Positions 13,570 to 56,235 of a stretch of DNA of 64,000 nt are shown piece by piece. Below the pieces are notes generated by a model, which did not search any database, was not told the DNA's origin, and worked only from the letters and a program-made list of their open reading frames with translations. Source of the DNA: Heterodontus francisci (taxonomy: Eukaryota); NCBI RefSeq assembly GCF_036365525.1, contig NC_090404.1, positions 12,428,550-12,492,549 on the forward strand, written 5' to 3'. A program made the position numbers and the translations under genes. How positions within the stretch are numbered: position 1 is the first letter of the stretch; every line of letters starts with the position of its first letter.

Positions 13570-14102
13570 ATGAAGCTGAGCTTCACTTTAGTTATTATCT
13601 CCCTGGATTTCTTACTCTACCCTCCGTGTGAGTGTGGACACTATCTCTGTTTGTCAGGAATTCTTTACACACAGACACACACACATCTATCTATATCATG
13701 TTATGTTGCGTTAGATTGCACTTTGCTGGATATTCTATTGTATTCTGTTGTGTTGTATTTTATTGCGCTATGTTGTATTGTATTCTGTTATATTATATGA
13801 TTATATATTATATCTGCATATTCTTCTCAGATGCCACTGGCAGTGAAGAGGTATCGCAGTCTCCTGAGTCAGTAGTTGTTATCGAGGGAGACACTGCATC
13901 GTTGACCTGTTCCACCATAGTGGCAGGTCGGATCCTACAATGGTACAGACAATACGGGATTGAACCGTGCATTACCTGGCGACCGGTACCAGTGATCACA
14001 ACAGGATCACGTCTCAGTTCATTGCAGCAGACAAGGGCAACTGTCTGACTGCGAGCGACAGTCGAGTGACAGAAACCACCACCTATTTCTGTGCAGTGGA
14101 TA
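13570..14102 (+). pseudogene. TCR alpha/delta V pseudogene (leader 13570-13627, V exon 13831-14102)
   Basis: Leader MKLSFTLVIISLDFLLYPP with GTGAGT donor; V reads ATGSEEVSQSPESVVVIEGDTASLTC..LQWYRQ, frameshift near 13966, ..ETTTYFCAVDT; RSS CACAGTA (14103-14109), 23 bp, ACAAAAAAC (14133-14141). Confidence 0.9.
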
Positions 14103-14550
14103 CACAGTACAGCAAAGATCAGCAGGGACTGTACAAAAAACTGCCGGAGCGGTCCTCATCATTTGTGGCCTGTGCAGATATCAGGGAGATGGCAATTTTA
14201 TAGCACTCTCTCTGGGAAATGCCCCTCAGTCTTCCAATAAGTGAAGTTTCCCCTGATCTGAGTTCTGTCTTTCAAAACCGATAAAATATTCTGTTATTTT
14301 CTGTCGAACTCTAAACCAGACTCCATGCGTTCCCACATTCCTTACTGATAATAACTGATAATAACGCTCCATGCTGATCAAACAGAGATAGTGACCACAC
14401 TCACACAGAGGGCAGAGTAAGAAATCCAGGGAGATAATAACTAAAGTAAAGCCCAGCTGCTCGGTGAGTCTATGTTTAAATGGTCACTGTCTGTTTAATG
14501 CGTCACATTCAATCCCAGACTTAGACACATTCAGTGTTTTGTTACACGAG

Positions 14551-14800: not shown

Positions 14801-14944
14801 TGATATATAAACCTGGAAGTCTTCGTTCTCCATGAGCCCGGGATCATACTAACCCATAAATAAAGGTACCAAAGAACACTTAACGCAGCTGTAAGTACTC
14901 ACTGTGGTTTTTGTACGGGGTCTTGGCTTTCGTCTGACGCTGTG

Positions 14945-15472
14945 CCTCACCGCACAATAATAGCCAGTTCCGTCCTCCACACTCAGATCGCTTATATTGA
15001 GATAATCGTTCCTTTTAGACTTATCAGCAGCCGCCAGATATTGTCCTGAGATTTCGTTTCCCTTCAGTGCAACTAGTTTGCTAATAATTCAGCTTGGAGG
15101 CTGTGCTGGTTTCTGCTGATACCATTGCATGTAATCAATATTCAGGGTTGTATATTCGCAATCTAACTGCACCGAACCCCCTTCTGACACGGTTATTGTC
15201 ACCGGAGACTGAGTTACTGCATCTGCACATAGTCCGCCTGTGAATGTAGAGGAATAAAGAACAGGAGGTTAAGGAGGATCGGTCTAAAATTGTGTCTATC
15301 TGTGTAAGTGCGCGTAATCTTCCATCTACCAGGCTGTCCACCATATGGATCTTTCTGATCGCAAATTATACTAAACCCGAGAACAAGCTCTTAGCAGAAA
15401 TATGACGACGTGCCTATTGAACCTAATCCAGTACTTACTGTCCAACACAGCCGCCAGTATTATCAGAAACAT
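14945..15472 (-). pseudogene. TCR alpha/delta V with a single premature stop (leader 15472-15439, V exon 15237-14945)
   Basis: MFLIILAAVLD/SGLCADAVTQSPVTITVSEGGSVQLDCEYTTLNIDYMQWYQQKPAQPPS*IISK...DLSVEDGTGYYCAVR; RSS CACAGCG (14944-14938), 23 bp, ACAAAAACC (14914-14906). Confidence 0.92.
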
Positions 15473-18313: not shown

Positions 18314-18783
18314 ATGCGGATACTCAGCATCTGGGTTGTGTGGGGAGCATTTCTGACAGGTAATTGTGGAATAAACACATTTCATCTTTTCTCTCATTTC
18401 TTAAACATGGTTTAAATCTGAATTTTAAACAACCGATGGCCTAATCTTTTCCTGTTCAAACATTTTGTTTTCAGATTGGAGTCATGGAGATTCTGTCACT
18501 CAGCAGCTGCCCTCAGATGTTAAGGCCGCAGGAGAAGCGGTGACTTTAAGATGTACATATGATACTACACAGAGCAACTATTATTTATACTGGTACCGGC
18601 AACACAAAGATATAGAGCCCGAGTTTATCCTGAGGAAATACTCAGGCAGTGGTGAATATAAAGCAGATTTTGCGAAAATCCGTTTCGTTGCTAAGCTCCA
18701 AAAATGGAATAAATGCATCAGTTTAACCATCTCGGGGCTGCAGCTGACTGACGCTGCCATGTATTACTGCGCTCTCCAGGACT
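18314..18783 (+). CDS. TRAV/TRDV: open TCR alpha/delta V segment (leader 18314-18359, V exon 18475-18783)
   Basis: MRILSIWVVWGAFLT/DWSHGDSVTQ..VTLRC..LYWYRQ..LQLTDAAMYYCALQD; phase-1 GT..AG intron. Confidence 0.95.
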
Positions 18784-18822
18784 CACAGTGATGGAAAGCA
18801 GTCACACCCCTGTACAAAAACT
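18784..18822 (+). promoter_or_regulatory. 23-RSS
   Basis: CACAGTG, 23-bp spacer, ACAAAAACT. Confidence 0.95.
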
Positions 18823-26331: not shown

Positions 26332-26370
26332 AGTTTTTGTACAGGGGTGAGACTGCTTTCCATCACTGTG
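26332..26370 (-). promoter_or_regulatory. 23-RSS
   Basis: CACAGTG (26370-26364), 23-bp spacer, ACAAAAACT (26340-26332). Confidence 0.95.
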
Positions 26371-26836
26371 AGGCTGAGAGCGCAGTAATACACGGCAGCG
26401 TCAGTCAGCTGCAGCCCCGAGATGGTTAAACTGATGAATTTAGTCGAGGTCTGGAGCTTTACAGAGAAACGGCTCTCAGCAAAATCTGCTTTAACTTCAG
26501 CACCGCCTGAGTATTTCCACAGTATAAACTCGGGCTGTGTATCTGGGTGTTGCCGGTACCAGTATAAATAATAGTTGCTCTGTGTAGTATCATAGGTACA
26601 GTTTAAAGTTACCGCTTCTCCCTCGGCCTTAACATCTGAGGACAGCTGCTGAGTGACAGAATCTCCATGACTGCAATCTGAAAAACAAGTTTAAACAGGA
26701 AAAGATCAGACCGACGACTGTTTAAAATTCAGATTTAAACCATGTTTGAGAAATAAGAGAAAAGATGAAATGTGTTTAATCCGCAATTACCTGTCAGAAA
26801 TGCTCCCCACACAACCCAGATGCTGAGCAGCTGCAT
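26371..26836 (-). CDS. TRAV/TRDV: open TCR alpha/delta V segment (leader 26836-26791, V exon 26677-26371); only its 3' tip appears in the ORF track
   Basis: MQLLSIWVVWGAFLT/DCSHGDSVTQQLSSDVKAEGEAVTLNCTYDTTQSNYYLYWYRQHPDTQPEFILWKYSGGAEVKADFAESRFSVKLQTSTKFISLTISGLQLTDAAVYYCALS, no stops. Confidence 0.95.
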
Positions 26837-28500: not shown

Positions 28501-28561
28501 TGTAACTGGAATTCTCCAGTGAATTTTTGTCTGCAATCTGCTTTTTCTCTGCAGCAGTGTG

Positions 28562-29540
28562 AGGCTCATGGCGCAGAAATACAGGGCGGTGTCAGAGATC
28601 AGGGCGCTGTGGATCGTTAGCTGGATAATCTTGGCAATTTTACTGAACGTAGAAGAAAATCGGTCAGTGAAGTCGAGGTTCCAGTATCCAGTTTACTATC
28701 CCTCTATAGAGATAAAACACGTACTGTGAGGCTGCCTGGGGCGCTGACTGTTGTGCCTAATACGCACTTACTCTTAAAGAATCCACGGAATCCGATTGAT
28801 GAAAGGTATATCAATATTTTATTCACAAACTATATCATCAAATACAAGCTCTCACTAACATGCACAGTATCAAAACTCACCAAAGTATAAGCTCTCACTA
28901 CTTGCACCTTATCCTCCCCATCAAGGCACGAGGTGATCAGTCTCGCACTTGTGGCTGCTCTACTGAGCCATTGACTCAGGGGTATCTTCTCGAGAGTTCT
29001 TCCCCGGGGTTCTCGTGCCTTTCCCAGTTTCAGTCAGGGATTAAATCTTGTTTCCAAAACCCTCCCCTCTTACTTACTCATAGGGGCATAATGACATAAT
29101 GAAAATTCCTTATTTGGCTCAGTGAGAACCTGTTCAACATTTTACAATTTCCCATCGTCTACTATGAGTCTAATCATATCTGGTGTCCATGACGACTCCT
29201 TTATCTGCTACGTGCAAGGACAGTGTCTGGGATCACAATATGTCTTTTCTATACTGTCTACAATTCCTCAGCCATCCGTGTGCTGTGACGCCTTTCTACC
29301 CAGCCTCCCCGCACCCCCATGCTTTAACACACTGTTCATTGTTGTGTGACTTCCCCTTTGTTTAAACGAAGTTCTTATGTGTTTTTACTATATGTGTTTT
29401 TACTGGATCTACATGACTATACCAGAATATAGAAGGGTTAGCAGTTCTTGTTTTCAAGGAACAGGTTAGTGTGATATAACTTTCCTCTTCAACCATTATT
29501 TCAGGAAACTGCTGTTCCAATGTGTCTCGGTGGCTCCATT
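28562..29540 (-). pseudogene. TCR V pseudogene split by a solo LTR
   Basis: 5' half WSHRDTLEQQFPEIMVEEESYITLTCSLKTRTANPSIFWYS (29540-29414); 3' half QRPRQP..QYVF..DFTDRFSSTFSKIAKIIQLTIHSALISDTALYFCAMS; RSS CACACTG, 24 bp, ACAAAAATT (28561-28522). Confidence 0.88.
28749..29413 (-). mobile_element. solo LTR (665 bp)
   Basis: TG...CA termini; 4-bp TSD TGAC at 28745-28748 and 29414-29417; AATAAA on the minus strand near 28820; removing it restores V FR2 WYSQRP. Confidence 0.8.
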
Positions 29541-31730: not shown

Positions 31731-32201
31731 ATGGGAATCCTTGTTTTCACCCTGTATGTCTGTTTACCCAGTGAGTACCGATCAAACACACCGACATTGT
31801 ATGAATTTAATATTAAGCTGCCCGAGTCCATCCGAATTACAGTCACTGTCTGGGGTTTGAGCCTCGTTGTGTGGTTCGGCTCTGATGGCCCACTAAACTC
31901 TCTGTTTAATTTCTAGTCTCTTTCAGTCAGTCAGTGACACAGACCCCGGAAGCGGTGACCAGGATGGAGTATCAGTCTCTCACCATCACCTGTGTTTACT
32001 GTGGTGGATTTTGGAATTATGATTTCCTAAATGGACGTTTCTTCAGACAAACCCACAAGGGACAGAGCGGGAGCGGATCTCCGGTGGAGGGCGATTTGAT
32101 GTGTCGGTGAATAAGGCAGAAAAGACATTTTCGCTGAAAATTCGGGATGAAAGTTGAAGACATCGCCACCTATTACTGTAAAGCTGAATACTTGTACAAC
32201 A
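31731..32201 (+). pseudogene. NAR-TCR (IgNAR-like) V segment, frameshifted (leader 31731-31770, V exon 31917-32201)
   Basis: MGILVFTLYVCLP/ISFSQSVTQTPEAVTRMEYQSLTITCVYCGGFWNYDFLNGRFFRQT/TERERISGGGRFDVSVNKAEKTFSLKIRD/KVEDIATYYCKA: VNAR-type loss of the CDR2 region, ISxGGR motif and YYCKA; frameshifts near 32058 and 32149. Confidence 0.9.
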
Positions 32202-32239
32202 CACAGTGATGGGCCTCGGCTTCCCATGGTACTAAAACT
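32202..32239 (+). promoter_or_regulatory. 23-type RSS (22-bp spacer) of the NAR V
   Basis: CACAGTG, 22 bp, ACTAAAACT. Confidence 0.85.
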
Positions 32240-32583
32240 CTCATTCCAGATTATCATAGAAACAAATGAAAAGGCGGAGTTAATCTGCAGTTAAACCTTA
32301 CAGTTCTGCCTCGCACCGTCTTTCCACAATCGCGATTAGAATGAGATTGGATTATTGCCATTAACATCTTGAGTTTTATATCTGCCCAGTGTGACAGTGA
32401 ATGGTGATGTCATTCCCGGCATTGGTGTCAGTGAATGGCGATTGGAAATGACTGATCCCAGTTACAAATCCAGTTGGGATCCTGATCTAACAGCTAGAAC
32501 GGGAACCGCATTCCCAACCATTTAACCAATGTCCCCACATCTCACCAAGTACCAGGAGATTTTCAGTTGAGTGAAACATTGTG

Positions 32584-32599
32584 TTTGCTTGGGAAAAGT
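32584..32599 (+). other. D gene segment (TTTGCTTGGGAAAAGT) with 12-type RSSs on both sides
   Basis: 3' RSS CACAGTG (32600-32606), 12 bp, ACAAATACC (32619-32627); 5' heptamer CATTGTG (32577-32583) with a weak nonamer AGATTTTCA 11 bp upstream. Confidence 0.8.
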
Positions 32600-32982
32600 C
32601 ACAGTGAATGAGACCTGAACAAATACCTCTGTGCAATTAATATATAAATTTCCCGGGACGGATCCTGAATTGTAGGGTTTGATGTTATTATCGCTGCAAT
32701 ATGGTCTAATTTTAGTGTCATTTCCTCCTTTATATTATCTTTGCCTGACATTTTTCCCCGTTTAGATGAAGCGCCCATCCCCAGCCCGCGTTCTTGGGAC
32801 ATCTTACTGAGAGCTCAGAGTCTCACAAAGAACAATTTGAACCGACAGGGAATGTGAAACGTGGAATATTGTTTAAAATCCATGGAATAATTGGGCAGCG
32901 CTGACTGTCTGGTGATGTGTGACCGGCAGATTGAGGTGTCGGTAGTTCTTGTATCGGGGTGACTGAAACCGGTGTCACTGTG

Positions 32983-33035
32983 TTACGAGACTAGATACGT
33001 GGATGGATCCGGGACGGTGGTGACTGTCACAGCCG
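32983..33035 (+). CDS. NAR-type J gene segment
   Basis: RSS AGTTCTTGT (32944-32952), 23 bp, CACTGTG (32976-32982); encodes YETRYVDGSGTVVTVTA; phase-1 donor GTAAGT at 33036. Confidence 0.92.
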
Positions 33036-33439
33036 GTAAGTGATTCTAAACCACGCCATGTTATGGACTAACCTGGTGAATGTTCACCCTCAGTTTAATA
33101 TCACGATAAATATCACCTCAATCCCTTGAAAATAAAACAGAGTAGTTTCCTAATGAACCTTTTCCATTGTAGTTTTAAATTCAGGGCAGACTGTGAACCG
33201 GCAGTAAGGTCTAGGTTTCAGTTTGGAAAAAGGACGTGTGAGATTCCCACAGAGAAGGCAGTCTGCGGGGTGCTGACACCATCTGGAACATCACCGGTTT
33301 AACGTGAACATCGGAGAATCCCCAAAACATCCCAGACTCTTTCTCACTCTGATCCACAGTTGGTTGAAATGAGCGCAGATTATCGATACTCCAGCTTCCG
33401 CTCCCGCTCTTCCCTGTGACTGAGGAAGCTCTGTCTGTT

Positions 33440-36050
33440 CCTGTGAGTACGGCACCTGTGGATTGGAAGGTAGTAAATGTAAACCAGTGGTTCAAGAAAG
33501 GAGGGAAAGAGAAAAGAGAACCATCTAGCATCAGGAATGTAGAAAATATTAAAATCTATTATTAGAGTAATGGTAATAGTGCAATTGGAAAATCGTAATT
33601 TGTTTAGGCAGAATCGACATGGATTTATAAAAGAGAAAGGCAAATTTATTCGAGCTTTTTGAGGTTTCACTCGGAGGATAGTTAAAAAGGAACCAGTGGA
33701 TGCAGTATATTTGGATTTCCAGAAGGCATTCAATAACGTGCCACACAGGATTAGGACTCATGGGATTGGGAGTAATATTTTAGCATAGATTTAGGATTTG
33801 TTGAGTGATAGGAAATAGGGAGTAGGAAATAAACAGGCCATTTTGGGGATGGCAGTGTGTAACTAGAGGCGTGACACTAGTATCTATGCGTGGGCCTTAG
33901 CTATTTCCTAACTATATCAGTGACTTAGATTAGGGTAGCGAGGGTAATACATCCAAATTTGCTAACAATAGAAAGATGAGAGGTAAGTAAGTTGTGAGGA
34001 GGATGCAAAGAAGCTGTAAAGGGATAAAGATAGGTTAAGTGAATGGGCAAGAAAGTGGCAGGTTGAGGATAATGCGGGAAAATGTGAAATTATTGCATAT
34101 GCAGGATTACATAGGAAATACGGCACAGAAACAGGCCATTTGGCCCAACCAGTCCATGCTGGCCTTTATGCTCCAATTGAGCCTCCTCCCATCTTTCCTC
34201 ATCTAAATCTATCATCGTAACTCTCTATGCCCTTCTCCCTTATTGCATGTCGATCTTCCTTGTAAATGCATCTATACTATTCGTTTCAACCACTCCCTGT
34301 GGTGGCGAGATTCACTTTCTCGCCACTCTCTGAGTAAAGAAGATTCTTCTGAATTCCCTATTGCATTTCTTTGTGACAATCTTATATTATTCTACACAAG
34401 TGGAAATATTCTCCCTGCATCCACTTTATCAAATCCTTCCATAATTTCAAAGGCGTCTATTCGGTCACACTTTGGCCTTCTTTTATCAAGAAAAAAGAGA
34501 CTCAGCCTATTCATCCTTTCCTGATATGTACACCCCCACATTTCTGTTATCATCCTTATCAATTTTCTCTGCATCCTCTCCATTGCCTCCATATACTTTT
34601 TTATAATATGGCGACCAAAACTGCACACTGTACTTTAAGTGGGTCTAACCAAGGTTTAGCATAACTTCCCTACTTTGTAATTCTAGCCCTCTAGAATTGA
34701 AGCTTCGGGCTTGGTTTGCTTTTATGCCCTTGCTAACCTGAGATGCAAATTTTAGTGTTTGATATATTGGTAATTCGAAGTACCTTTGTCCTCTACCCAA
34801 CCTAGACTCGCATTTTCCAAGTAATAAGTGATTTCCCTATTCTTGCTTCCAAAGTGTAATACCTCACTTCTTTCTGTGTTGAATTTCATTTTCCAATTAT
34901 TTTCCCATTATGCAGTGTCCTCCTGTAATATGTTACGGTCCACCTCAGGATTAACTACCCCCTCACCCCATACACATCCCACCCCACATAATTTGGTGTC
35001 AAATTTTGAAATTGTGCTTTTGATTCCAAAGTCCAATCGTTAATGTAAACTGAGAACAGCAGTGGTCTCAGCACTGATATATAATACCACTTCTTACTTT
35101 CTGCCACTCTGAATAAATACCCTTCACTCCCACGATCTGCTTTCTGTCTCTAAGTAAGCTGACAATCTATGCTGTCACTAGTTTCTTGACTCCACATTCT
35201 CTGACGTTATTCTTTAGTCTATTATGGGATACTTGATCGAAGGTCTCTTCATTTTATTTATTTTTGTTGAAAATGCAGAGAAATTACATCTACTGCATTT
35301 CCATTGTTTATTCTCACTGTTACCTCCTCAAAACTTCAACAATCCTATCCACTTTGATAGGAAGAATGGAAAACTGAATATTTGTAAAAGGTGAGAGAGT
35401 AGCAAATATTGTTATTCAGAGGGATTTGGTGTAACTTGTACAGGAATCATCATCACAGAACGTTGACATGCAGGTACAGCAAACAATTAGGAAGGGAATT
35501 AGTATGTTAGCCTTTATTGCAAGATCCTTGGAGTATATGAGTGCAGAAGTCTTGTAGCAATTCTCCAGTGCTTTGCTGAGTCCGAACCTGGTGTGGTAAT
35601 TGACTGAACATCCAGAGCCCTCTAGGTTAGACAAGTCCAATGATTCACAATTGTCTGAGTGAAGAAATGTCTCCTGACCCCAATCCGAAATGAGTCACTC
35701 CTTATCCTCGGACTTTGACTCTTAGTTCTCGGCTCTCCACATCGGCCATGTGGCTGGCTATTGGTCATCTCTCATGTTATTAACTTTTATTCTTAATAAC
35801 ACCATAAAACAATTCAGGAGAAACTTCACCTCGCAGGCAGTGGTTGGAATGTGAAACTTGTTATCGGGTGGAGTAGTTGAGGTGAACAGGTCAGTGCATT
35901 CAAGGCAAAGCTCCCGTAACATTTGAGGGTGCAAACAATAGAATGATATCATGATAGGGTGAGATGAATAGCTTTAATGGAGGCTCGTGTGGAGCATAAA
36001 CATTGGCATGGACCAGTTGGGCCAAATGGCCTAGTTCTGTGCTATACATT
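33440..36050. mobile_element. patchwork of decayed CR1 fragments in both orientations
   Basis: DFQKAF, ERMQRK..R and RRPKCD remnants, plus several CR1 tails. Confidence 0.7.
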
Positions 36051-36311
36051 CTGTGATAATCTATCTGATACGTATTTTTCATGTATAAGAGATAGATTTG
36101 CAGGAATGCATCTGCATCCTTGGTGACTGTTAATTGAAGTAACAGTGGGCAGTGAATGAGTGAGAGCGAGGACCTCATGTTCTTGCAAAAGGAGCACAGG
36201 AACAGCTGAGGGAATGAGTGCAGACCGGAAGAAAGTCCATTTGGAGCAAGCAATTAATCAGTCAATGAAAGGGAGAGACATATCGGACTTCACTGGCTGG
36301 GCAGGAGTCTG

Positions 36312-39300
36312 GAGACATAGAAATATAGGAAGAGCAGTAGGCTATTCTGCCCATCGAGACAGCCCCGCCATTCAATATGACCATGGCTGATCATCCACAT
36401 CAATGTATTGTTCCCACACTGTCCTCATATCCCCTAATGTCATTGGTATTTAGAAATCTGACAATCTCTGCTTTAAACATACTCAATGACTGAGCTTCCA
36501 CAACCCTCTGGGGTAGAGAATTCCAAAAATTCACAACCCTCTGAGTAAAGAAATTTCTCGTCAGCTCTGTCCTAAGTGGCTTCTCCCTTATTTCAAAATT
36601 GTGTCCCCTGGTTCTAGACTCCCCAACCAGGGGAAACATCTTACCTGAATCAAACTGTCTACCCCTTTAAGTATTTTGTAGGTTTCACTGAGATCGCCCC
36701 TCATTTTTCGAAACTCTAGAGAATACAGGCTCGGTTTCCCCAATCTCTCTTCATAGGACAGTCCGGCCATCCCAGTAACAAGTCTGGTGAACCTTCATTG
36801 CGCTCCCTCTATGGAAATAATATCCTTCCTCGGGTAAGGGGGGCAAACTTGCACACATTACTCAAAGTGTGGTCTAACCACCATTCTACACCTTTGATAC
36901 AAGACTTCGCTACTTCTGTACTCAAATTCTCTTGCGATAAAGGCTAACATACTACTGGCCTTCCTAATTGCTTGGTGCACTTGCATGTTAGCTTTCAGTG
37001 ACTTATTGACAAGGACACCCAGATCTCTGTACATCTACACTTTCTAATCTCTTACCATTTAAGAAACATCTATTCCTCCTACCAAAATGGATAACCTCAC
37101 ATTTTGCACATTATATTCCATCTACCACGTCCTTGCCCATTCACTACGTCTGTCCAAATCACCTTGGAGCTGCTTTGCAACTTCCTCACAACACACATTC
37201 CCACCCAGTTGTGTGTCATCTACGAACGTGGAAATATTACATTTGGCCCCCATATCCAAATCATTGATATATATTGTGAACAGCTGAGGCCCAAGCACTG
37301 ATCCCCACGGTACCCCACTAGTCACAGCCTGCCAACGCGAGAATGAACAGTTTATTCCTACTCTTTGCTTTCTGCCTGTTAACCAATCCTTAATCCATGC
37401 TAGTATATTACCTCCTATCCCACGTGCTTTAATTTTGCTAACCAACATCCTGTGGGGATCTTTATCAAATGCCTTCTGCAAATCCAAGTATACCAAGCCC
37501 ACCGATTCCCCATTATCAATTCTGCTAGTCACATCCTCAGAAAAGTCCAACAGGTTCGTCAAACATAATTTCCCATTAATAAATCCATGTTGACTATGCC
37601 CAATCAGATCATTATTATTCAAGGGTTCATTTATCACATCCTTTAGAATTGATTCCAGTATTTTTCCAACGACTGATTTAAGGCTAACGGGTCTGTAATT
37701 CCCTGTTTTCCCTCTCCCTCCCTTCTTAAATTGTGGGGTAACATTTGCGACCTTCCAATCTTCAGGAACCGCTCCATAATATATTGAATTTTGGAAGATG
37801 ATCACCAATGCATCTACCATCTTCTTAGTTACCTTTTTCAACGCTCTCGGATGTAGAACAAAGGTCTTGGGGATTTATTAACCTTCAGCCCATTAATTTC
37901 TCCAATACAACCTTCTTACCATTACTAATTTTCTTCAATTCCTCATTCCCCATAATTCATTGGATCTCAAATTGTGGGAGATTTCTTGTATCTTCCTCAG
38001 TGAAGACAGACACAAAGTAATCATTTAGCTTCTCTGCCATTTCTCTGTTCCCCATTATAAATTCTCCTGATTCTGCCTGTAATGGACCCACATTTGTCTT
38101 AGCCAAACGTTTCCTTTTTACGTACCTGTAGAAACTTTTACAGTACGTTTTTATGTCTTTTGCTACCTTACCTTCATATTCTATTCTCCCTTTCTTTATC
38201 TGTTTCTTGGTCCTCCTTTGCTGTATTCTAAAATCCTCTCAATCCGCAGGTTTACTGCTATTTCTGGCAATTTTATAGGCCACCTCTTTTAATCTTACAC
38301 AATCGGTAACTTATTTTGTTATCCATAGTTGACTGCGTTTACTTTTGGAGGTTTTGTGCCTTGAAGGAATGTATAGTTGCTGTAAACTATGGAATATTTC
38401 TTTAAAGACTATCCATTGCCTATGTACTGTCATGCTTTTTCATGTATTTTCCAAATCCACCTCAGCTAATTTGCCCCTCCTACCTTCATAATTTCCTTTG
38501 TTCAAATTTAACACCCTGGCTTCAGATTGAACTACATCACCTTCAAACATATTGTAAAATTCAATTATGGTCACTTATCCCTAAATGTTCTTTTACAACT
38601 AGATTATTAATTAGCCCTTTCTCATTACATAAAATTAGATCTAAAATAGCCTGTTCTCCAGTCGGTTCCTCAACATATTGTACTAAAACACCATCCCTAA
38701 CACACTCCAGAAACTCCTCCTCCACAGCATTCGTGCTCATTAGGTTTACCCAGTCTATATGAAGATTGATGTCACCCATGATTAGTGTATTATCCATGCC
38801 ACATGCTTCTCTAATCTCCTGATTAATACCATGCCCCACTACTGTTTGGTGGCCTATGAACAACTCCTATCAATGTTTGCTGCCACTTGCTGTTTCTTAG
38901 CTCCACCCAAACAGATTCCAGATTTTGTTCTTCCGATCTGATATCCTCCCTTACTAATGGGCTAATCCCATCCCTTATTATCAGCGCAACACCACTTCCT
39001 TTTCCTTTTTGCCTGTCCTTCCTAAATGTCAAATATCCTTGAATATTCAGTTCCCAGTCTTGGTCACTTTTCCGTAATGGCAATTAGATCATACCCATTT
39101 ACCTCTGTTTGGGCCTTTAAATCATCTACCTTGTTGCAGATGCTGCATGTATTCAGGGAGAGGGCCCTTAGCCTTCTCTTCTTGACATTCTGCATTCTAA
39201 GCCTAGTTGATGTTCTTTTTCCGCCTGACTTCTAATATCACTTTCTACTTTTCTACCTCCTGTTACACGCTTTACTTCCTTCCAATTTCAGCTATCCCTC

Positions 39301-40180
39301 AGGTTCCCATCCCCCTGTCAAGCTAGTTGAAACCATCCCCAGCAGCACTAGCAAATCACCTAGTGAGGATATTAGTTCCGGTCATTGTAAAGGTTTAGTT
39401 TAGTGATACAGCACTGAAACAGGCCCTTCGGGCCACCGAGTCTGTGCCGACCATCAACCACCCATTTATACTCATCCTACACTAATCCCATATTCCTATC
39501 ACATCCCCACCTGTCCCTAGATTCCCCTACCACCTACCTATACGAGGGGCAATTTATAATGGCCAATTAACCTATCAACCTGCAAGTCTTTGGCATGTGG
39601 GAGGAAACCGGAGCACCCGAAGGAAACCCACGCAGACACAGGGAGAACTTACAAACTCTGCACAGGCAGTACCCAGAATCGAACCCAGGTCCCTGGAGCT
39701 GTGAGACTGCGGTGCTAACCACTGTGCCGCCCGTCCATCATGTACAGGTCCCACCTGCCCAAGAACTGGTCCCACTGCCTCAGAAATCTGATGCCCTCCC
39801 TCCTACACCAATCCTCCAGCCATGTGTTCAATCGATCAATTCTCCTCTTACTATGCTAACTAGCACGTGCCACTGGGAGTAATCCTGAGATTACTGCTTT
39901 GGAGGTCCTGCTTTTTACTTTCCTTCCTAACTCCGTAAAAGCTGCTTTCAGAACCTCATCCCTCTTTCTACCTTTGTCTTTGGTACCAATGTGGACACCC
40001 TCCCGCAGAAGGATGTCTTGCAGCTGCTCCGTGACATCCTTGACCCTGGCACCAAGGAGGCAACACACCATTCTGGAGTGACGTTTACTGCCACAGAAAC
40101 ATCAGTCTTATCCCCTGCCTATTGGATCCCCTATCACTATTGCTCTTCCACTCTTCTTCCTCCCTTCCTGTGCAGCTGAG
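36312..40180 (-). mobile_element. degenerate long CR1 LINE (ORF1 esterase, ORF2, tail) with a nested SINE
   Basis: ORFs 37122-37841, 38561-39083 and 39856-40071. Confidence 0.9.
39394..39732 (-). mobile_element. tRNA-derived SINE (HE1-like)
   Basis: Near-identical to 9289-9651. Confidence 0.9.
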
Positions 40181-40189
40181 CCGCATCAT

Positions 40190-40950
40190 GGAGCCCTGGC
40201 CAAACTGGAGTCAATGGGAATCAGGGGGGAAACCCTCCGCTGGTTGGAGTTATACCTAACACAAGTGAAGATGGTTGCTGTTGTTGGAGGCCAATCATCT
40301 CAGCTCCAGGACATCACTGCAGGAGTTCCTCAGGGTAGTGTCTGAGGCCCAACCATCTTCAGCTGCTTCATCAATGAGCTTCCTTCAATCATAAGGTCAG
40401 AAGAGGGGATGTTCGCTGATGATTGCACGATATTAAGCACCATTTGCGACTCCTCAGTTACTGAAGCAGTCCGTGTCGAAATTCAACAAGACCTGGACAA
40501 TATCCAGGCTTGGGCTGATAAGTGGCAAGTAACATTCGCACCACACAAGTGCCAGGCAATGACCACCTCCAACAAGAGAGAATCTAACCATCTTCCCTTA
40601 ACCTTTAATGGCATTAGCATCGCTGAACCCCCACTATCAACATCCTAGAGGCTACCATTGACCAGAAACGGAACTGGAAAAGCCATATAAATACCTTGGC
40701 TACAAGAGCAGGTCAGAAGCTAGGAATCCTGTGGCCAGTAACTCACCTCCTGTCTCTCCAAATCCTGTCCACCATCTACAAGGCACAAGTCAGGAGTTCG
40801 ATGGAATACTCTCCACTTGCCTGGATGGTTGCAGCTCCAACAAGAAGCTCGACACCATCCAGAACAAAGCAGCCCGCTTAATTGGCACCCCATCCACAGA
40901 CATTCACTCCCTCCACCACCGAGGTACAGTGGCAGCAGTGTGTACCGTGT
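40190..40950 (+). mobile_element. L2/Crack-like LINE RT fragment
   Basis: GVPQGSV, MFADD..QQDLDNIQAWADKW. Confidence 0.8.
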
Positions 40951-41429
40951 AAATAACTTCTTCCTAATGTCTTTACTTGTTCTGTCTGTGACTGTCTTTT
41001 ATTTATGGCGCTTTGTTCTGGACTCACTGACAATTGAAAACATTTTTCCCACTTGTACCCCTTGGAACTTTAGCATTTTAATTATGTCCGACCGGTCTCC
41101 TCGTTGACATCTCTTTTCCAGAGACAAGACCCTCAGGCTGTTCAATCTTTTCAGATAGGTGTGGATTGCTGTTGATGTCTTTTTTCAGGGATATTAGAAA
41201 TACAAGTTTGATAAAAGGTCTGGAATCCAATCACCACCCGTCCCTCCAGTAGAGCTCACTTCCCGGTGTCGGATTGTAATTTGAACAACCCTGGGACTAG
41301 TTTTTGTTTTGTTTACATCGATCAAGTAATTGGAATTCCTTTTTCAGTTAAGAGGTACGTTACCTTTCTTGCAGTTTTAAACAGGGGTATACTAACACTC
41401 TGAGAGTATCTGTCGCTAGTTAATTAGAT

Positions 41430-42100
41430 AGCTAGCTGAAACTGGTTTCTGAGCTGCAGCAGAGCTGATACAGCATTGTTTCAGAGTATAAATGCAGGGG
41501 GATCTCAGTGCTGCTTGTATGCATTGAGTTCTGCTGGAGGACACAGAGTGTGAAGATGAGAGTTTGGCAATTGAGGGCGCTTGGTAAGGAGGGGAAGTAA
41601 AAATTAAGAAGAAAATACATTTGAGTGCACAGAGTGTAAAGTTGGAGTTGGGTGCGTGAGGGTGGGTCCTTTCGTTCTTTCTTTCTTCTACCCTTTTTCA
41701 GTCGCCTTTCTTTTCGGTAGAGGGGAAGAAGTTGATTGGTGAGTAACTGATAAGTTATTTTGCTTCTCATTGTAATAAAAGGTTTTTTAAAGTTACATTA
41801 TGGCAGGTCAGCTTGGCCAAGTGGAATGTACGTCCTGTGGCATTTGGGAAGTCATGGACACACTACTTGTCCTCGTCGAACACATCTGCTGGAAGTGTCA
41901 CCGACTGCAGAAGCTTCAGCTCCGGGTTTTGGAAATCGAGCGGCGGCTGGAGTCACTGTTGTGCATCCATGAGGCAGAAGACTACATGGATAGCACGTAT
42001 AGGGAGGTGGTCGGACCGCAGGTTAGGAGCTTACAGGCAGAGAGGGAATGGGTGACCACTAGGAAATGTAAGACAGGCAGTGCAGGAGTCCCCTGAGTCT
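41430..42100 (+). mobile_element. CR1 5' UTR and ORF1 N-terminus
   Basis: ORF 41800-42096 (VECTSCGIWE..HICWKC..L..RV.E.E.L). Confidence 0.75.
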
Positions 42101-42109
42101 ATCTTGCTT

Positions 42110-42455
42110 TTTTTTTATTCATTCATGGGATGTGGGCGTCGCTGGCTAGGCCAGCATTTATTGCCCATTCCTAATTGCCCTTGTGAAGGTAGTGGTGAGC
42201 TGCCTTCCTGAACCGCTGCAGTCCATGTGGGGTAGGTACACCCACAGTGCTGTTCGGAAGGGAGTTCCAGGATTTTGACCCAGCGACAGTGAAGGAACGG
42301 CGATATAGTTCCAAGTCAGGATGGTGTGTGACTTGGAGGAGAACTTGCAGGTGGTGGTGTTCCATGTATTTGCTGCCCTTGTCCTTCTCAGTGGTAGAGG
42401 TCGTAGGTTTGGAAGGTGCTGTCTAAGGAGCCTTGGTGCGTTGATGCAGTGCATC
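42110..42455 (-). mobile_element. L2/Crack-like LINE 3' end
   Basis: Matches the 3' ends at ~3700-3856 and 19403-19750; poly-T at 42107-42116. Confidence 0.8.
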
Positions 42456-43668
42456 GTGTATTTACACAGAGGGAAGTCAGAAACGTGGAAATCGCTGCCA
42501 GAGGGAATAGTTGGAGAATATGGCATTCACGCACTGTCGGGGAGGCGTGAAAATACTAAAGGAAGAAAGGAATAAAGGGACAAAGAGGTCAGGACGGGAA
42601 GAGGTTATTGAAGTGGGAGGTGGCTCTTGTGGAATATAAAATCCGGCACATACCAGTTGGGCCGAATGGCCTACTCCTGTTCTGCAGATTCAGGATAATA
42701 TTAAACTTAGAGAAACTCCCCTTTGGGAACAGGGTAGATACTCAGCCAATGGGCTGTGTGAATTGAAATTGTCAGTCAGCCGGAAGAGCAGGTTCTCAGT
42801 AAGTAACAGTAAAACCAATGCGGAAACTGCACAAACTGAACCCAACTGACAACTGAGAGACTTTGGGACAAGTTCCCAATACGGCAAAAAGCGCAACTAG
42901 TACAAAATGAGCGACCCAGATGTAGAAATAAAACAAAAAATACCCGTATAAATCCGAGATTAAAGTGAAACTGAACAAAGCGGGCCCTGTACTGGGAAAA
43001 TATAAACAAAGAGAGCTTGAGGTAGGCAGGAACTCCCTTGAAGCGTGAAACTGTAGTGAAACTCTGATCTTTTAAACAAAGACGTCAAGCGTCACTTCGC
43101 TCAATCGCTCTCATGTATCTCACTGCTTTCTGTTGCATCTTGCATCATAAACATAACACAACTGCGCTACTATCAGTCTACCACTTCTTTTTGCAAGGTG
43201 ATTGTCTCCGCGAGGAGAATAGACGATTCAATTGTTTCCACTGTCTGTCTTTCACCAAGAAAAATAGAAGCAGAAATTTAAGAATGATACAACACGGAAT
43301 GAAATCATTCAGCCTATCTTGTATGTTAAAGAGCTATTCAATTAGTCCCACTCGCCCTGGTATTTTTCCACCCCGCTAACAATTCCTCCTTCTCCAGTAT
43401 CTATCCAATTCCCTGTTGAAAGCTGTTATTGAATCTGCTTCCACCACCTTTTCAGACAGTGCATTCCACATCACAACAACTCGCTGTATAAATAGATTTC
43501 TCCGGAGCTCCTAGTTTGTTCTTTTGCCAATTAAAATCAATAAAGTTCGAACGGACTTCAGATGAAGAACAGCATTACCGCGGAAGGCAGAGCTCTGCCT
43601 GTGATTGACAAGTGTCTCCGGGTAAACAGCAACTAAAGACATAATAATACTACATTTTTATCCTGCAG

Positions 43669-43974
43669 ATTCCAGTTCCCTGGTGTCCCAGAGTACGCCT
43701 CAACAAACTTCTGCTGCCGGCAACACCGTTACTTTAAGCTGCGAATATTCAGGGTTCTGTCAGTGCACAGTACACTGGTACCGTCAGTCCCCAGGGCAGG
43801 CTCCGAAATACCTGATTCAGACATACACTTCAGGAAAGCAGAATGAAGATAATGCAGCCGGGGGACGAATTTCTGCTTCTCTCGATCCTGCCGAGAAAAT
43901 CAGCCAGTTAAAAATTGCCAAATTGCAACTGAGCGACTCCGCTGTTTATTACTGTGCACTGAGTCAGCGTGAAG
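43669..43974 (+). CDS. TRDV: open 'supporting' TCR delta V of the NAR-TCR cassette (no conventional leader)
   Basis: Acceptor TCCTGCAG in the same phase as the J donor; DSSSLVSQSTPQQTSAAGNTVTLSCEYSGFCQCTVHWYRQ..LQLSDSAVYYCALSQRE; non-canonical CDR1 Cys; no typical leader nearby. Confidence 0.88.
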
Positions 43975-44270
43975 CACAGTGACACAGAGCACGGAGAGAG
44001 CTGTACAAAACCCTGAACATTGTAGGGATTACAGACACACAGTGACACAGAGCACGGAGAGAGCTGTACAAAAACCTGAACATGGTGGGGTTTGCAGCCA
44101 TACAGTGATGCAGAGCATGGAGAGAGCTGTTCAGAAACCTGAACATAGTGGGGATTACAGCCATAGAGTGATACAGAGCACGGAGAGAGCTGTACAGAAA
44201 CCTGAACATAGTGGGGATTACAGCCATAGAGTGATACAGAGCACGGAGAGAGCTGTACAGAAACCTGAAC
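43975..44270 (+). repeat. tandem array of five 23-RSSs (63-bp period)
   Basis: Heptamers at 43975, 44038, 44101, 44164 and 44227; nonamers at 44005, 44068, 44131, 44194 and 44257; all spacers 23 bp. Confidence 0.95.
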
Positions 44271-46554
44271 AGAGAACAACCACAGAAAAAATACGGCATG
44301 GAAGGAGGCTATTCAGCCAGTCGTGTCAGTGCTGGCTGGGAAAAAAAACTCGCCGCCCCATCTAATCCCACCTTCCAGCACCTGGTCCATAGTCTTGCTG
44401 GTTGCAGCACTTCAGGTGCCTGTCCAGATTCCTTTTAAAAGAATTGAAGTTTCTGCCTCTACCACCGTTCCTGGCACTGAATTCCAGACACCCTCTGGGT
44501 GAAAATGTTTTCCTCATGTCCCCTCTAATCCTTCTACTAACCACCTTAAATCTGTGCCCTCTGGTAATTGATCTCTACGCTAGGGGAAACAGGTCCTTCC
44601 TGTCTACTCTATCTAGGCCCCTCATATTTTCATACACCTCTATTAAATCACCCCTCAGCCTCCTCTGTTCGAAGGAAAACAACTCTAGCCTATCCAATCT
44701 TTCCTCATAGCTGCAACTTTTGAGTCCTGGCAACATTCTTGTAAATCTTCTCTCTATTCTCTCCAGAGCAATGATGTCCTTTCTGTAATGTGGTGACCAG
44801 AACTGTGCACAATACTCCAACTGTGGCCGAACCAGTGTTTTACACAGTTCCAGCATTACATCCCTGCTTTTGAATTCTATACCTTGGCCAATAAAGGAAA
44901 GCATTCCATATTCCTTCTTCATCACTCTATCTACCTGTCCTGCCACCTTCAGGGACCTGTGGACATGCACTCCAAGGTCTCTCACTTCTTCTACCCCTCT
45001 CAGTATCCTCTCTTTTATTATGTATTCTCTAGCATTATTTGTCCTCCCCAAATGCATTACCTCACACTTTTCTGGATCGAATTCCATTTGCCACTTTTCC
45101 GCCCACTCAACTAATCAATTGATATTTTTCTGGAGTCTAAGGCTATCCTCTTCACTATCAACTACACAGCCAATTTTTGTGTCATCGGCAAATTTCCCAA
45201 TTATGCCTCCAACATTTAAGTCCAAATCATTAATATATATCACAAACAGCAAGGGACCCAACACTGAGCCCTGTGTAACGCCACTGGAAACAGATTCCCA
45301 TTAACAAAAACATCCTTCTACCACTACCCTTTGTTTCCTGTCCCTGAGCCAATTCTAGATCGAGCCTGCTACATTACCCTGTATCCCATGGGCTTTCATT
45401 TTACTGACCAGTCTGCCATGTGGGACCTTGTCAAATGCCTTACTAAAATCCATGTGGATCAAATCCACTGCACTACTCTCATCAATGCTTCTTGTTACTT
45501 CTTCAAAAAACTCAATTGAGTTAGTAAGACATGACCTTCATTTAACAAATTCATGCTGACTATCCCTGATTAATCCTTGCCTTTCTAAATGGCAGTTTAT
45601 CCTGTCCCTCAGAATCGGTTCTAACAATTTACCCAGCACCGAGGTCAGACTGACTGGCATATAATTATCTGACCTATCCCTAGCACCCTTTTTAAACAAT
45701 GGTACAACATTCGCAGACCTCCTATCATCTGATAACTTTCCTTTATCTGGTGAGGATTTGAAGATAATTCTCAGCGCATCTGTTATTTCCTCCCTGGCTT
45801 CCTTTAACATCCTGGGATGCAATCCATCTGGCCCTGGCGTTTTATCCACTTGCAAAAATGACAGACCCTTTAGTACTTCCTCTCTCATTATGTTTATCGC
45901 ATCCAATATTTCACACTCCTCTTTAACCACAATGTCTACATCAACCCGCTCCTTTGTGAAGACAGAGACAAAAAGCTAATTATGAACCCTGACCACATCT
46001 TCTGCATCCACGCATAAGTTCCCTTCTACATCTCTGATAGGCCCGACCCTTTCCTTAGTTATCCTCTTGCTCTTAATGTACTGATAAAACATCTTTGGGG
46101 TTTCCTTAATTTTACCTGCCAATAATTTTTCATGTCCTCTCTTTGCTTTTCTAAATTCATTTTTTACTTCACCCTTGCACTTTCTGCTCTCCTCTAGGCT
46201 TTCTAAAGTATTAAGATTTTTGTCATCGTCATAAGCTTTCTTTTTCTGCTTCAACATAACCTGTAAGCTTCTAGATACCAGGGGCTCTCGAATTGGCAGT
46301 ACCACCCTTTATCTTTGTGGGGACATGCCGACACTGTGCCTGTAGTGTCTCGCTTTTGGATGCCTCCCACTGGTTTGCCACTGATTTTCCTCCAAGTAGC
46401 TGTATCCAGTCCTCTTTTACCAGGTCACCTCTCGGTTTCTCAAAATTTGCCTTCCACCAATTTAGAACTTTTACTCCTGTTTTATTTTTGTCCTTTTCCA
46501 TGATTATGCTAAAACGTACTGTATTGTGGTCACTATCTCCAAAATAGTCACCCA

Positions 46555-49899: not shown

Positions 49900-50600
49900 A
49901 GCCTATCGCCAACTGCCGCTGCTCCGGTCTCAGGTAGGTGTAGGCTACGAGCCCCACTCTTTATTTCCACAAGTACCGTTCTGGATCCGCCTACTCTCAG
50001 GTCCGCCATCGGCTGCTGCTGCTCCAGTCTAAGGAGGGAAGGGCCTCAAGCCCTGCTTTTTATTTCCACATGTCCCACTCTGAATCCAACTCCTCCCAGG
50101 TCCTCTGCCAAATGCTGCTGCTCCAGTTTAAGCTAGGTGTAGGCCTTGAGCCACACTTTTTATTTCCACAGGTCCTACCCTGCATCTGCCTCCTCCCAGG
50201 TCCACCGCTGACAGCCGCTGCTCTGGTCTAAAGTAAGTGTAGGCCTCGAGCCCCACTCTTTATTTCCACAGGTTTCCCTCTGGATTCGCCTCTTCCCAGG
50301 TCTGCCGCTCAAGTCTAAATTCGGTGTAGGCATCACACCCTGCTCTTTATTTCCACAGGTCCCACTCTGCATCCACATCTTCCCAGATCCTCTGCCAAAT
50401 GTCACTGCTCCGGTCCAAGCTAGGTGTAGGCCTTGAGCCTCGCTTTTTATTTCCACAGGTCCCGCTCTGGATCTGCCTCTTTCAGGTCTGCCGCTGACAG
50501 CTGCTGCTCCAGTCGAAGGTAGGCGTAGGCCCCGAGCCCCGCTCTTTATTTCTGCAGGTCCCGCTCGAGATCCGCCTCCTCCCAGGTCTGCTGCTCTGTT
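49900..50600 (+). repeat. ~85-100-bp minisatellite, left part (~7 units)
   Basis: Recurring AGGTGTAGGCCTCGAGCCCCACTCTTTATTTCCACAGGTCC. Confidence 0.9.
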
Positions 50601-55240: not shown

Positions 55241-56235
55241 GTTCCTGTGTAACCCTGCCCCTCAGTGCTAGTTCCTGTGTCTACATGCTCATAGTGTGCG
55301 TTCCTGTGTATACATGCACCGCAGTTTGAGTTCCTGTGTATCCCCTTCCCGCACTTCTAATTCCTGGGTATACCTTCCCTGCAATGCGAGTTCCTGTGTA
55401 TACCTGCCCCACCGTGTGAGTTCCTGTGTATCCCCGCCCCACAGTGCTAGTTGCTCTGTATACCTGCCTGTGTATCCCTGCCCTGCAGTGCTAGATCCTG
55501 TGTATAATTGTCCCACAGTGCTAGTTCCCCTGTATACCTGCCCCGCAGGGCTAGTTCCTGTGTATATCTGCCCCGCAGCCCGAGTTCGTGGGTATCTCTG
55601 CCGGGCAGTGCTAGTTCCTGTGTATACCTGCCCAGCAGAGCTAGTCCCTGTGTATCCTCGCCCCGCAGTGCTAGTTCCTGTGTATACCTGTCCCACAGTG
55701 CTAGTTCTCCTATATACCTGCCCCGCAGGGCTCGTTCCTGTGTCTCTCTGCTCTGCCGTGCCAGTTCCTGGGTACCACTGGCCCACAGTGCTAGTTCCTG
55801 GGCATTTCCTGCCCACAGATCTGGTTCCTGTGTATACCTGCCCTACAGTTCAATTCCTGTGTATATCTGCCCCATTGCCCTAGTTCCTGGGTATCTCTGC
55901 CCCACAATGCTAGTTCCTGTGTATACCTGCCCCACCATGCTAGTTCTTGGGTATACCTGCCCCGCAGTGCTAGTTCTTGGGTATATCTGCCCTGCAGTAC
56001 TAGTTCCTGTGCATATTTGTCCCGCAGTGCTAGTTCATAGGTACATCAGCCCCGAAGAACTAGCTCCTGGGTATATCTGCCCCGCAGTGAATAGGATCCC
56101 GGGTATCTCTGCTGCGCAGTGCTAGTTCCTGGGTATACCTGCCCTGCAATGCTATGCCCTGTGTATACCTGCCCTGCAATGCTATGCCCTGTGTATACCT
56201 GCCCCGCAGTGCTAGTTCCTGTGTAAACCTGTCCA
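55241..56235 (+). repeat. 30-bp minisatellite (~33 units)
   Basis: Unit CAGTGCTAGTTCCTGTGTATACCTGCCCCG. Confidence 0.95.

Follow-up and report, generated by a model that had tools for sequence, protein, structure and literature searches.

In a 64,000-nucleotide stretch of the Heterodontus francisci genome (NC_090404.1, positions 12,428,550 to 12,492,549 of the forward strand; hereafter, the window), we identified a cassette of NAR-TCR, reportedly a doubly rearranging T cell receptor (TCR) delta chain of cartilaginous fish described by Criscitiello in 2006. The first variable (V) segment of this cassette is frameshifted and the copy likely makes no receptor, a reading to which we assign a probability of about 0.9. 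The system itself is already known, and the window copy adds a pseudogene member, one more dead copy. The value of the analysis lies in counting NAR-TCR copies across the genome of a single shark, with 39 V matches spread over 10 Mb, in birth and death among the copies, and in two head-to-head clusters of diversity (D), joining (J), and constant (C) segments that serve both cassette orientations.

A NAR-TCR cassette in the window

By direct reading and a scan for recombination signal sequences (RSSs), all parts named in the original prediction were located where it had placed them. These include a leader, a VNAR-like V with a 22-bp-spacer RSS, a J with a 23-RSS and a phase-1 donor, and, 10.6 kb downstream of the J, a phase-matched V exon that is open behind an AG. 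The cassette had been called complete, which holds for this list of parts but not for the copy, which is broken by two frameshifts; the shifted frame of the first V runs into TGA stops at 32108 and 32135. The predicted 12/12 D likewise has a good 12-RSS on its 3′ side, but its 5′ signal is 11-spaced and degraded. The prediction had also assigned more than one cysteine (Cys) to complementarity-determining region 1 (CDR1) of the V-delta exon. One of these, at 43758, is the Cys of the family, but the second, at 43764, is private to the window copy. Eight RSSs with a perfect heptamer were found in the window, five of them between 31.7 and 44.3 kb, compared to a mean of 0.03 per window in 60 simulated windows, so the cluster of signals cannot be attributed to chance. 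The parts are as follows.

31731..31770, plus strand: leader exon, 13 codons plus 1 nucleotide (nt), phase-1 GT donor; one codon shorter than the leaders of sister copies
31917..32201, plus strand: NAR-TCR (VNAR-like) V exon, a pseudogene, with a −1 frameshift near 32058, a −2 frameshift near 32148, and Tyr at the a-b loop Cys codon (31970)
32202..32239, plus strand: V RSS, heptamer at 32202, 22-nt spacer, two mismatches in the nonamer
32556..32583, minus strand: D 5′ RSS, degraded, with a 1-nt deletion in the 12 spacer (now 11) and an altered nonamer
32584..32599, plus strand: D segment, 16 nt, all three frames open
32600..32627, plus strand: D 3′ RSS, 12-nt spacer, good
32944..32982, minus strand: J RSS, 23-nt spacer
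32983..33035, plus strand: NAR-TCR J segment, ending in a phase-1 GT donor
33036..43668, plus strand: 10.6-kb intron, largely high-copy repeats according to the depth table
43669..43974, plus strand: leaderless supporting V-delta exon, open, AG acceptor phase matched to the J donor, 23-RSS at 43975
43975..44271, plus strand: tandem RSS array of 63-bp units numbered 1 to 5, each a 23-RSS plus a 24-nt linker

The 22-nt spacer of the V RSS is the norm across NAR-TCR family copies. A motif scan found no V exon inside the 10.6-kb intron. The supporting V carries its canonical Cys residues at 43740 and 43953.

Membership in the NAR-TCR family

We searched the 6.0-Gb genome at the DNA level with the first V and the second, supporting V as queries. 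The first V returned 39 matches, all on the contig of the window (C34) between 3.66 and 13.65 Mb, and the 26 matches of the supporting V were on the same contig. A same-strand supporting V lay no more than 17 kb away from 28 of the 39 first-V matches, which pairs 25 of the 26 supporting Vs. The window first V is 81% identical to its nearest sister, and the best matches in PDB of an intact sister V (L005) were VNAR domains (E = 1e-18).

Phylogeny gave the same placement. We used a quick method on 72 rows, after thinning 9 near-duplicate rows and skipping one model (P0032). The window V grouped with the first domains of two-V models from sharks and a sawfish (Shimodaira-Hasegawa-like approximate likelihood ratio support of 99), and the V at 43669 grouped with their second domains (95), apart from the sampled ordinary leader-bearing Vs (15 of 30, mostly of one family). 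The first V thus did not cluster with ordinary TRAV or IgH V segments, nor the 43669 V with leader-bearing TRDV, the two outcomes that the original prediction had set against itself, and its NAR-TCR interpretation of the cassette is supported. The second V is 61 to 83% identical to members of its own group, compared to 33 to 41% for ordinary Vs. A PDB search with the supporting V matched only generic multi-V constructs, and a single-sequence fold of one protein (P0007) had a predicted local distance difference test score (pLDDT) of 36.7, which is too low for reading disulfides.

The family also carries the published features. In the consulted part of PMC1845163, NAR-TcRV is defined by a leader, a Cys within the a-b loop, and a missing WYRK Trp, while the V-delta associated with it has no leader and a CDR1 Cys. 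With a single script, we found a leader within 600 bp upstream of none of 25 supporting Vs, compared to 28 of 30 ordinary Vs and 18 of 20 first Vs. The CDR1 Cys was present in all 23 full-length reads among the 25 supporting Vs. At the position of the WYRK Trp, the window V has FFRQ, and FFRQ or FFRK occurred in 38 of the 39 matches, although the search pattern itself required it. The a-b loop Cys was kept in 37 of 38 parsed first Vs; the single exception is the window copy, which has Tyr. We read this absence as a private loss in a pseudogene, which bars the copy from being a working member but not from family descent. The same two-V layout recurs in public models of a sawfish and of several sharks, some of them reaching a C domain. 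The nearest protein models that bear a species name are those of Heterodontus francisci.

We compared the cassette with NAR-TCR as presented in the consulted parts of six sources (PMC1845163, PMC3457774, PMC5931798, PMC6795676, PMC3149040, and PMC12227049); PMC7615758 was also drawn on in part. The two share a leader-bearing VNAR-like V without the WYRK Trp, their own D and J, a TCR-delta locus, and splicing of the J, which we saw in sister copies, to a V-delta that lacks a leader and has a CDR1 Cys. Unlike NAR-TCR in those sources, the window copy is frameshifted and lacks the a-b loop Cys. Three features that we describe below go unmentioned in the text consulted: the RSS arrays, the segments joined in the germline, and the middle NAR Vs that have no leader.

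In four other supporting Vs (L031, L036, L040, and L046), the first canonical Cys is replaced by Tyr and the CDR1 Cys is kept. Scyliorhinus and Hemiscyllium models have Trp where these four have Tyr.

A broken copy in a family with intact members

Compared to three intact sisters, the window V has lost 1 nt near 32058 and 2 nt near 32148, and the 5′ signal of the D has lost 1 nt from its spacer. The D-signal deletion is covered with 0 differences by contigs of runs X1 and X5, which may come from the assembly's own sample. The window copy has lost the a-b loop Cys, yet it has gained Cys residues at 31997-31999, in CDR1 of the first V, and at 43764, in CDR1 of the supporting V. These gains probably reflect drift after pseudogenisation. 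With a leaderless supporting V and no alternative first V nearby upstream, the whole cassette is likely dead. That the window copy is a pseudogene, with its frameshifts, Cys loss, and damaged D signal, was understated in the original prediction. Across the family, 16 of the 39 matches combine an open V with a called RSS, D, and J; in 13 of these 16, the supporting V is open too and keeps both canonical Cys residues.

It is highly improbable that the window cassette is instead functional or polymorphic, with frameshifts that represent assembly errors or one allele. The indels do sum to −3, such that the frame is restored, and the leader, J, splice sites, and supporting V are intact. However, the loss of the a-b loop Cys is an independent lesion, found in 1 of 38 parsed copies, the D-signal deletion is matched by contigs, and the spliced contigs bear the bases of sister copies. 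A few points do weigh against our reading of a dead NAR-TCR cassette. The frameshift sites are left uncovered by the listed contigs, and the supporting V and three of the four cassette signals are still intact. Membership in NAR-TCR, in turn, rests on published features and automated gene models rather than on nurse shark reference sequences; the protein searches turned up none under a nurse shark NAR-TCR name.

Splicing and a proposed second rearrangement

Splicing of the J to the supporting V, which the original prediction had proposed to look for, was seen for a sister copy; the window copy itself shows intact, phase-matched sites only. Two contigs of run X5 continue from the acceptor of a sister supporting V (L028) straight into the end of a NAR-TCR J, and the J variant in these contigs differs from the window J. 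Other X5 contigs join 31769 to 31918, with two intervening letters that are sister-copy bases at the exon borders. We guessed that run X5 is RNA, as argued by joints at both exact exon borders. Some X5 contigs exactly match introns of the window copy; these may be DNA or sterile transcripts and were not used.

These joints bear on a further alternative. IgNAR clusters contain several D segments, and their J is spliced to IgNAR constant exons. The first V has its best structural-sequence match in VNAR, the V of IgNAR, and the V-D-J is cluster-like; unlike IgNAR, the window cassette has one D, and the NAR-TCR J splices to a TCR V and not to immunoglobulin constant exons. The idea that the V-D-J is an orphan IgNAR-type cluster lying near an unrelated TCR V by chance, which could appeal to the VNAR-like V and to a 12/12 D between 23-spaced V and J, as in IgH-type geometry, is already largely refuted by the J-to-V joint and scarcely credible given the steady pairing of the first V with a leaderless V, the single D, the missing Trp at the WYRK position, and the a-b loop Cys of the family, as described for NAR-TCR in the part of PMC1845163 consulted.

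Two C exons were found on contig C34, at 3.30 Mb on the minus strand and 3.46 Mb on the plus strand. Each C cluster contains a single D between a 12 and a 23 signal, a geometry that we take to be delta-like, and 19 and 11 J-like motifs, respectively. The J segments of these D-J-C clusters, 11 to 19 per cluster, carry a 12-RSS. Among the TCR-type PDB matches of the query chain are several under the name TCR delta and one labeled TRA@. The clusters share the contig with the cassettes, and the signals fit the 12/23 rule at both rearrangement steps. About 9.1 Mb separate these D-J-C clusters from the window cassette, which has plus-strand orientation.

Where a sister copy works, its V, D, and J would be joined locally by RAG in keeping with the 12/23 rule. 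A second, independent rearrangement, as portrayed in the literature consulted in part, would then join the supporting V to D-J-C-delta. Splicing, as seen in the sister-copy contigs, links the leader to the V and the J to the supporting V. In the resulting chain, the a-b loop Cys of the first V may bond the CDR1 Cys of the supporting V, a bond that is itself called putative in the part of the literature consulted. Because of its plus orientation, only inversion to the minus-strand D-J-C cluster would give the window cassette a chromosomal product. Between the two head-to-head clusters (C34:3.30-3.46 Mb, L124-L141) lie about 12 V segments, several of which have VH-like framework motifs and are oriented toward the nearer cluster.

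Arrays of recombination signals behind the supporting V

The supporting V of the window is followed by 4.7 copies of a 63-bp unit that consists of a 23-RSS and 24 nt, a feature absent from the original prediction. Units 1 and 2 are near consensus, and the CAC start has been lost in units 3 to 5. Across the family, 20 of 26 supporting Vs have 2 to 14 such units and 5 have a single unit. The repeat was found at none of 30 ordinary Vs, which represent one family, and at none of 20 first Vs; 10 of the 30 ordinary Vs have a weak, unrelated second RSS match about 105 nt further on. When we searched the whole 6-Gb genome with exact tandem patterns, the 23 and 25 matches were all to the 63-bp unit and all on C34. 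Among the 25 matches, 22 were at supporting Vs and 3 were at two arrays without a V. The latter are at C34:5,489,963 and 10,427,415 (L074 and L086), and one of them comes after a repeat insertion.

Evidence from other samples and species suggests that the array is old. Contigs of organisms C and F bridge unit 1 to unit 2, whereas organism D has depth over the array and no bridging piece among those listed. Protein models of three other shark genera (Stegostoma, Hemiscyllium, and Pristiophorus) run on through two or three units, which argues for the age of the array; among 52 models, the repeat pattern itself caught only the one from Stegostoma, and the other two were read by eye.

We compared the signal and spacer positions for deviation from consensus. 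In first units (n = 25), the heptamer and nonamer deviated by 1.25% and the spacer by 6.1% (P = 1e-4). In distal units (n = 67), the corresponding values were 6.6% and 7.1% (P = 0.69), and within arrays, signal and spacer classes varied alike. Because they decay as fast as spacers, the extra signals look like passengers. The array is thus probably an old minisatellite in which selection has kept only the first signal. Some observations weigh against a passenger array. The copies are related rather than independent, such that the P values are rough, and when two polymorphic spacer columns were dropped, the contrast in first units fell to P = 0.08. In addition, 48 of the 67 distal units are near consensus and potentially still cuttable, which a neutral repeat would not require, and the array has been kept in distant sharks.

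A functional role for the arrays is doubtful, though it merits consideration: extra 23-signals could make it easier for RAG to capture the supporting V across megabases, and the signals that remain once a distal one is cut could permit a further join, at short range, to a J downstream. Such a role would fit the restriction of the repeat to supporting Vs and to one unit in 6 Gb, its presence in organisms C and F and in the models of the three genera, and the 11 to 19 J segments with 12-RSSs that are available per cluster. A single origin in the ancestor of the family would, however, account for the same specificity. Moreover, the distal heptamers and nonamers show no excess conservation, five supporting Vs manage with a single signal, and two arrays persist without a V. 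In 24 of 25 Vs, a cut at a distal unit would also leave behind a stop inside the first unit, which rules out a germline switch of CDR3 length by distal signals as a general rule. We therefore favor the passenger minisatellite over a bait for RAG.

In the literature on tandem or repeated RSSs, we found no paper on such arrays; the main NAR-TCR papers fell outside the scope of this search and may already show them, and one search on repeated RSSs was swamped by other meanings of the abbreviation. With 1 to 14 signals on otherwise similar Vs, the arrays provide a natural experiment on signal number and V usage.

Germline-joined segments and a possible three-V chain

Outside the window, at a distance of about 4.6 Mb, the family includes segments that are already joined in the germline. 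At C34:11,269,688 (L061, L146), a V with a leader and an open frame is fused to its D, the D 3′ 12-RSS is present, the J is unjoined, and an open supporting V follows 4 kb on. At C34:7,806,962 (L018, L145), a leaderless NAR V with a CDR1 Cys and an intact RSS is followed by a germline-fused D-J. This unit lies 0.8 kb past the J of a leader-bearing cassette (L051), within its J-to-supporting-V intron, and the D 3′ heptamer of that cassette is damaged. At C34:7,874,149 and 7,875,274 (L060, L144), two leaderless, fully joined, in-frame VDJ exons lie in the interval from an intact cassette to its supporting V; the former is open and the latter has a stop. These two units have diverged at 106 of about 1,110 bases, but their junction is identical, which argues that the join was inherited and is older than the duplication.

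All three leaderless middle Vs have a phase-1 acceptor and donor and keep both the a-b loop Cys and the CDR1 Cys, the latter of which is found in only 2 of 34 parsed leader-bearing first Vs. Their joined CDR3 contains no Cys. As far as sequence can indicate, this anatomy is what the middle storey of a three-V chain would need, and the two Cys residues could bond up and down. We tentatively suggest, as an unlikely but consequential arrangement, that some cassettes may encode a rearranged NAR V, a NAR V that has no leader and a full or partial germline join, and a supporting V-delta, with the arrays additionally tuning capture. Automated models from outside provide hints, with two V-J units ahead of the supporting V in P0004 and in P0005 of Carcharodon. 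On the other hand, the second V of P0005 has no CDR1 Cys, the three middle Vs share one origin, one joined unit carries a stop, and one common change in the Arg codon that their relatives have would presumably suffice to give the CDR1 Cys. Apparently conserved junctions in public models of other sharks (e.g., P0013 and P0017) look like read-through of the J signal and were not used.

A three-V chain, should the middle exons be used, would go beyond the two stacked V domains that are the known maximum and would parallel the germline-joined supporting V of marsupial TCR-mu. In the consulted part of PMC3457774, mammalian TCR-mu resembles NAR-TCR in stacking an antibody-like V on a supporting V, and the supporting V of the marsupial form is germline joined. 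The latter resembles the prejoined leaderless exons described here. That paper gives TCR-mu an independent origin; unlike NAR-TCR, it has a VH-like rather than a VNAR-like V, and occupies a separate locus. Judging from titles and the starts of abstracts, we found no literature on three-V or leaderless NAR cassettes or germline-joined exons, and key NAR-TCR papers and their supplements may already show such joins; a term search of one PMC3964593 supplement gave no match.

Other features of the window

Additional V genes are found upstream of the cassette. Two unrelated, broken V genes lie tail to tail at 13830-14141 (plus strand) and 14906-15240 (minus strand), with facing 23-RSSs about 840 bp apart. 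The segments at 18470-18822 (plus), 26332-26680 (minus), and approximately 28520-28860 (minus) comprise two open leader-bearing Vs of one family and one decayed V; the leader-bearing family has 40 matches on C34. Downstream, tandem repeats occupy 49907-50596 (about 100 bp, 7 copies) and 55241-56231 (about 30 bp, more than 25 copies).

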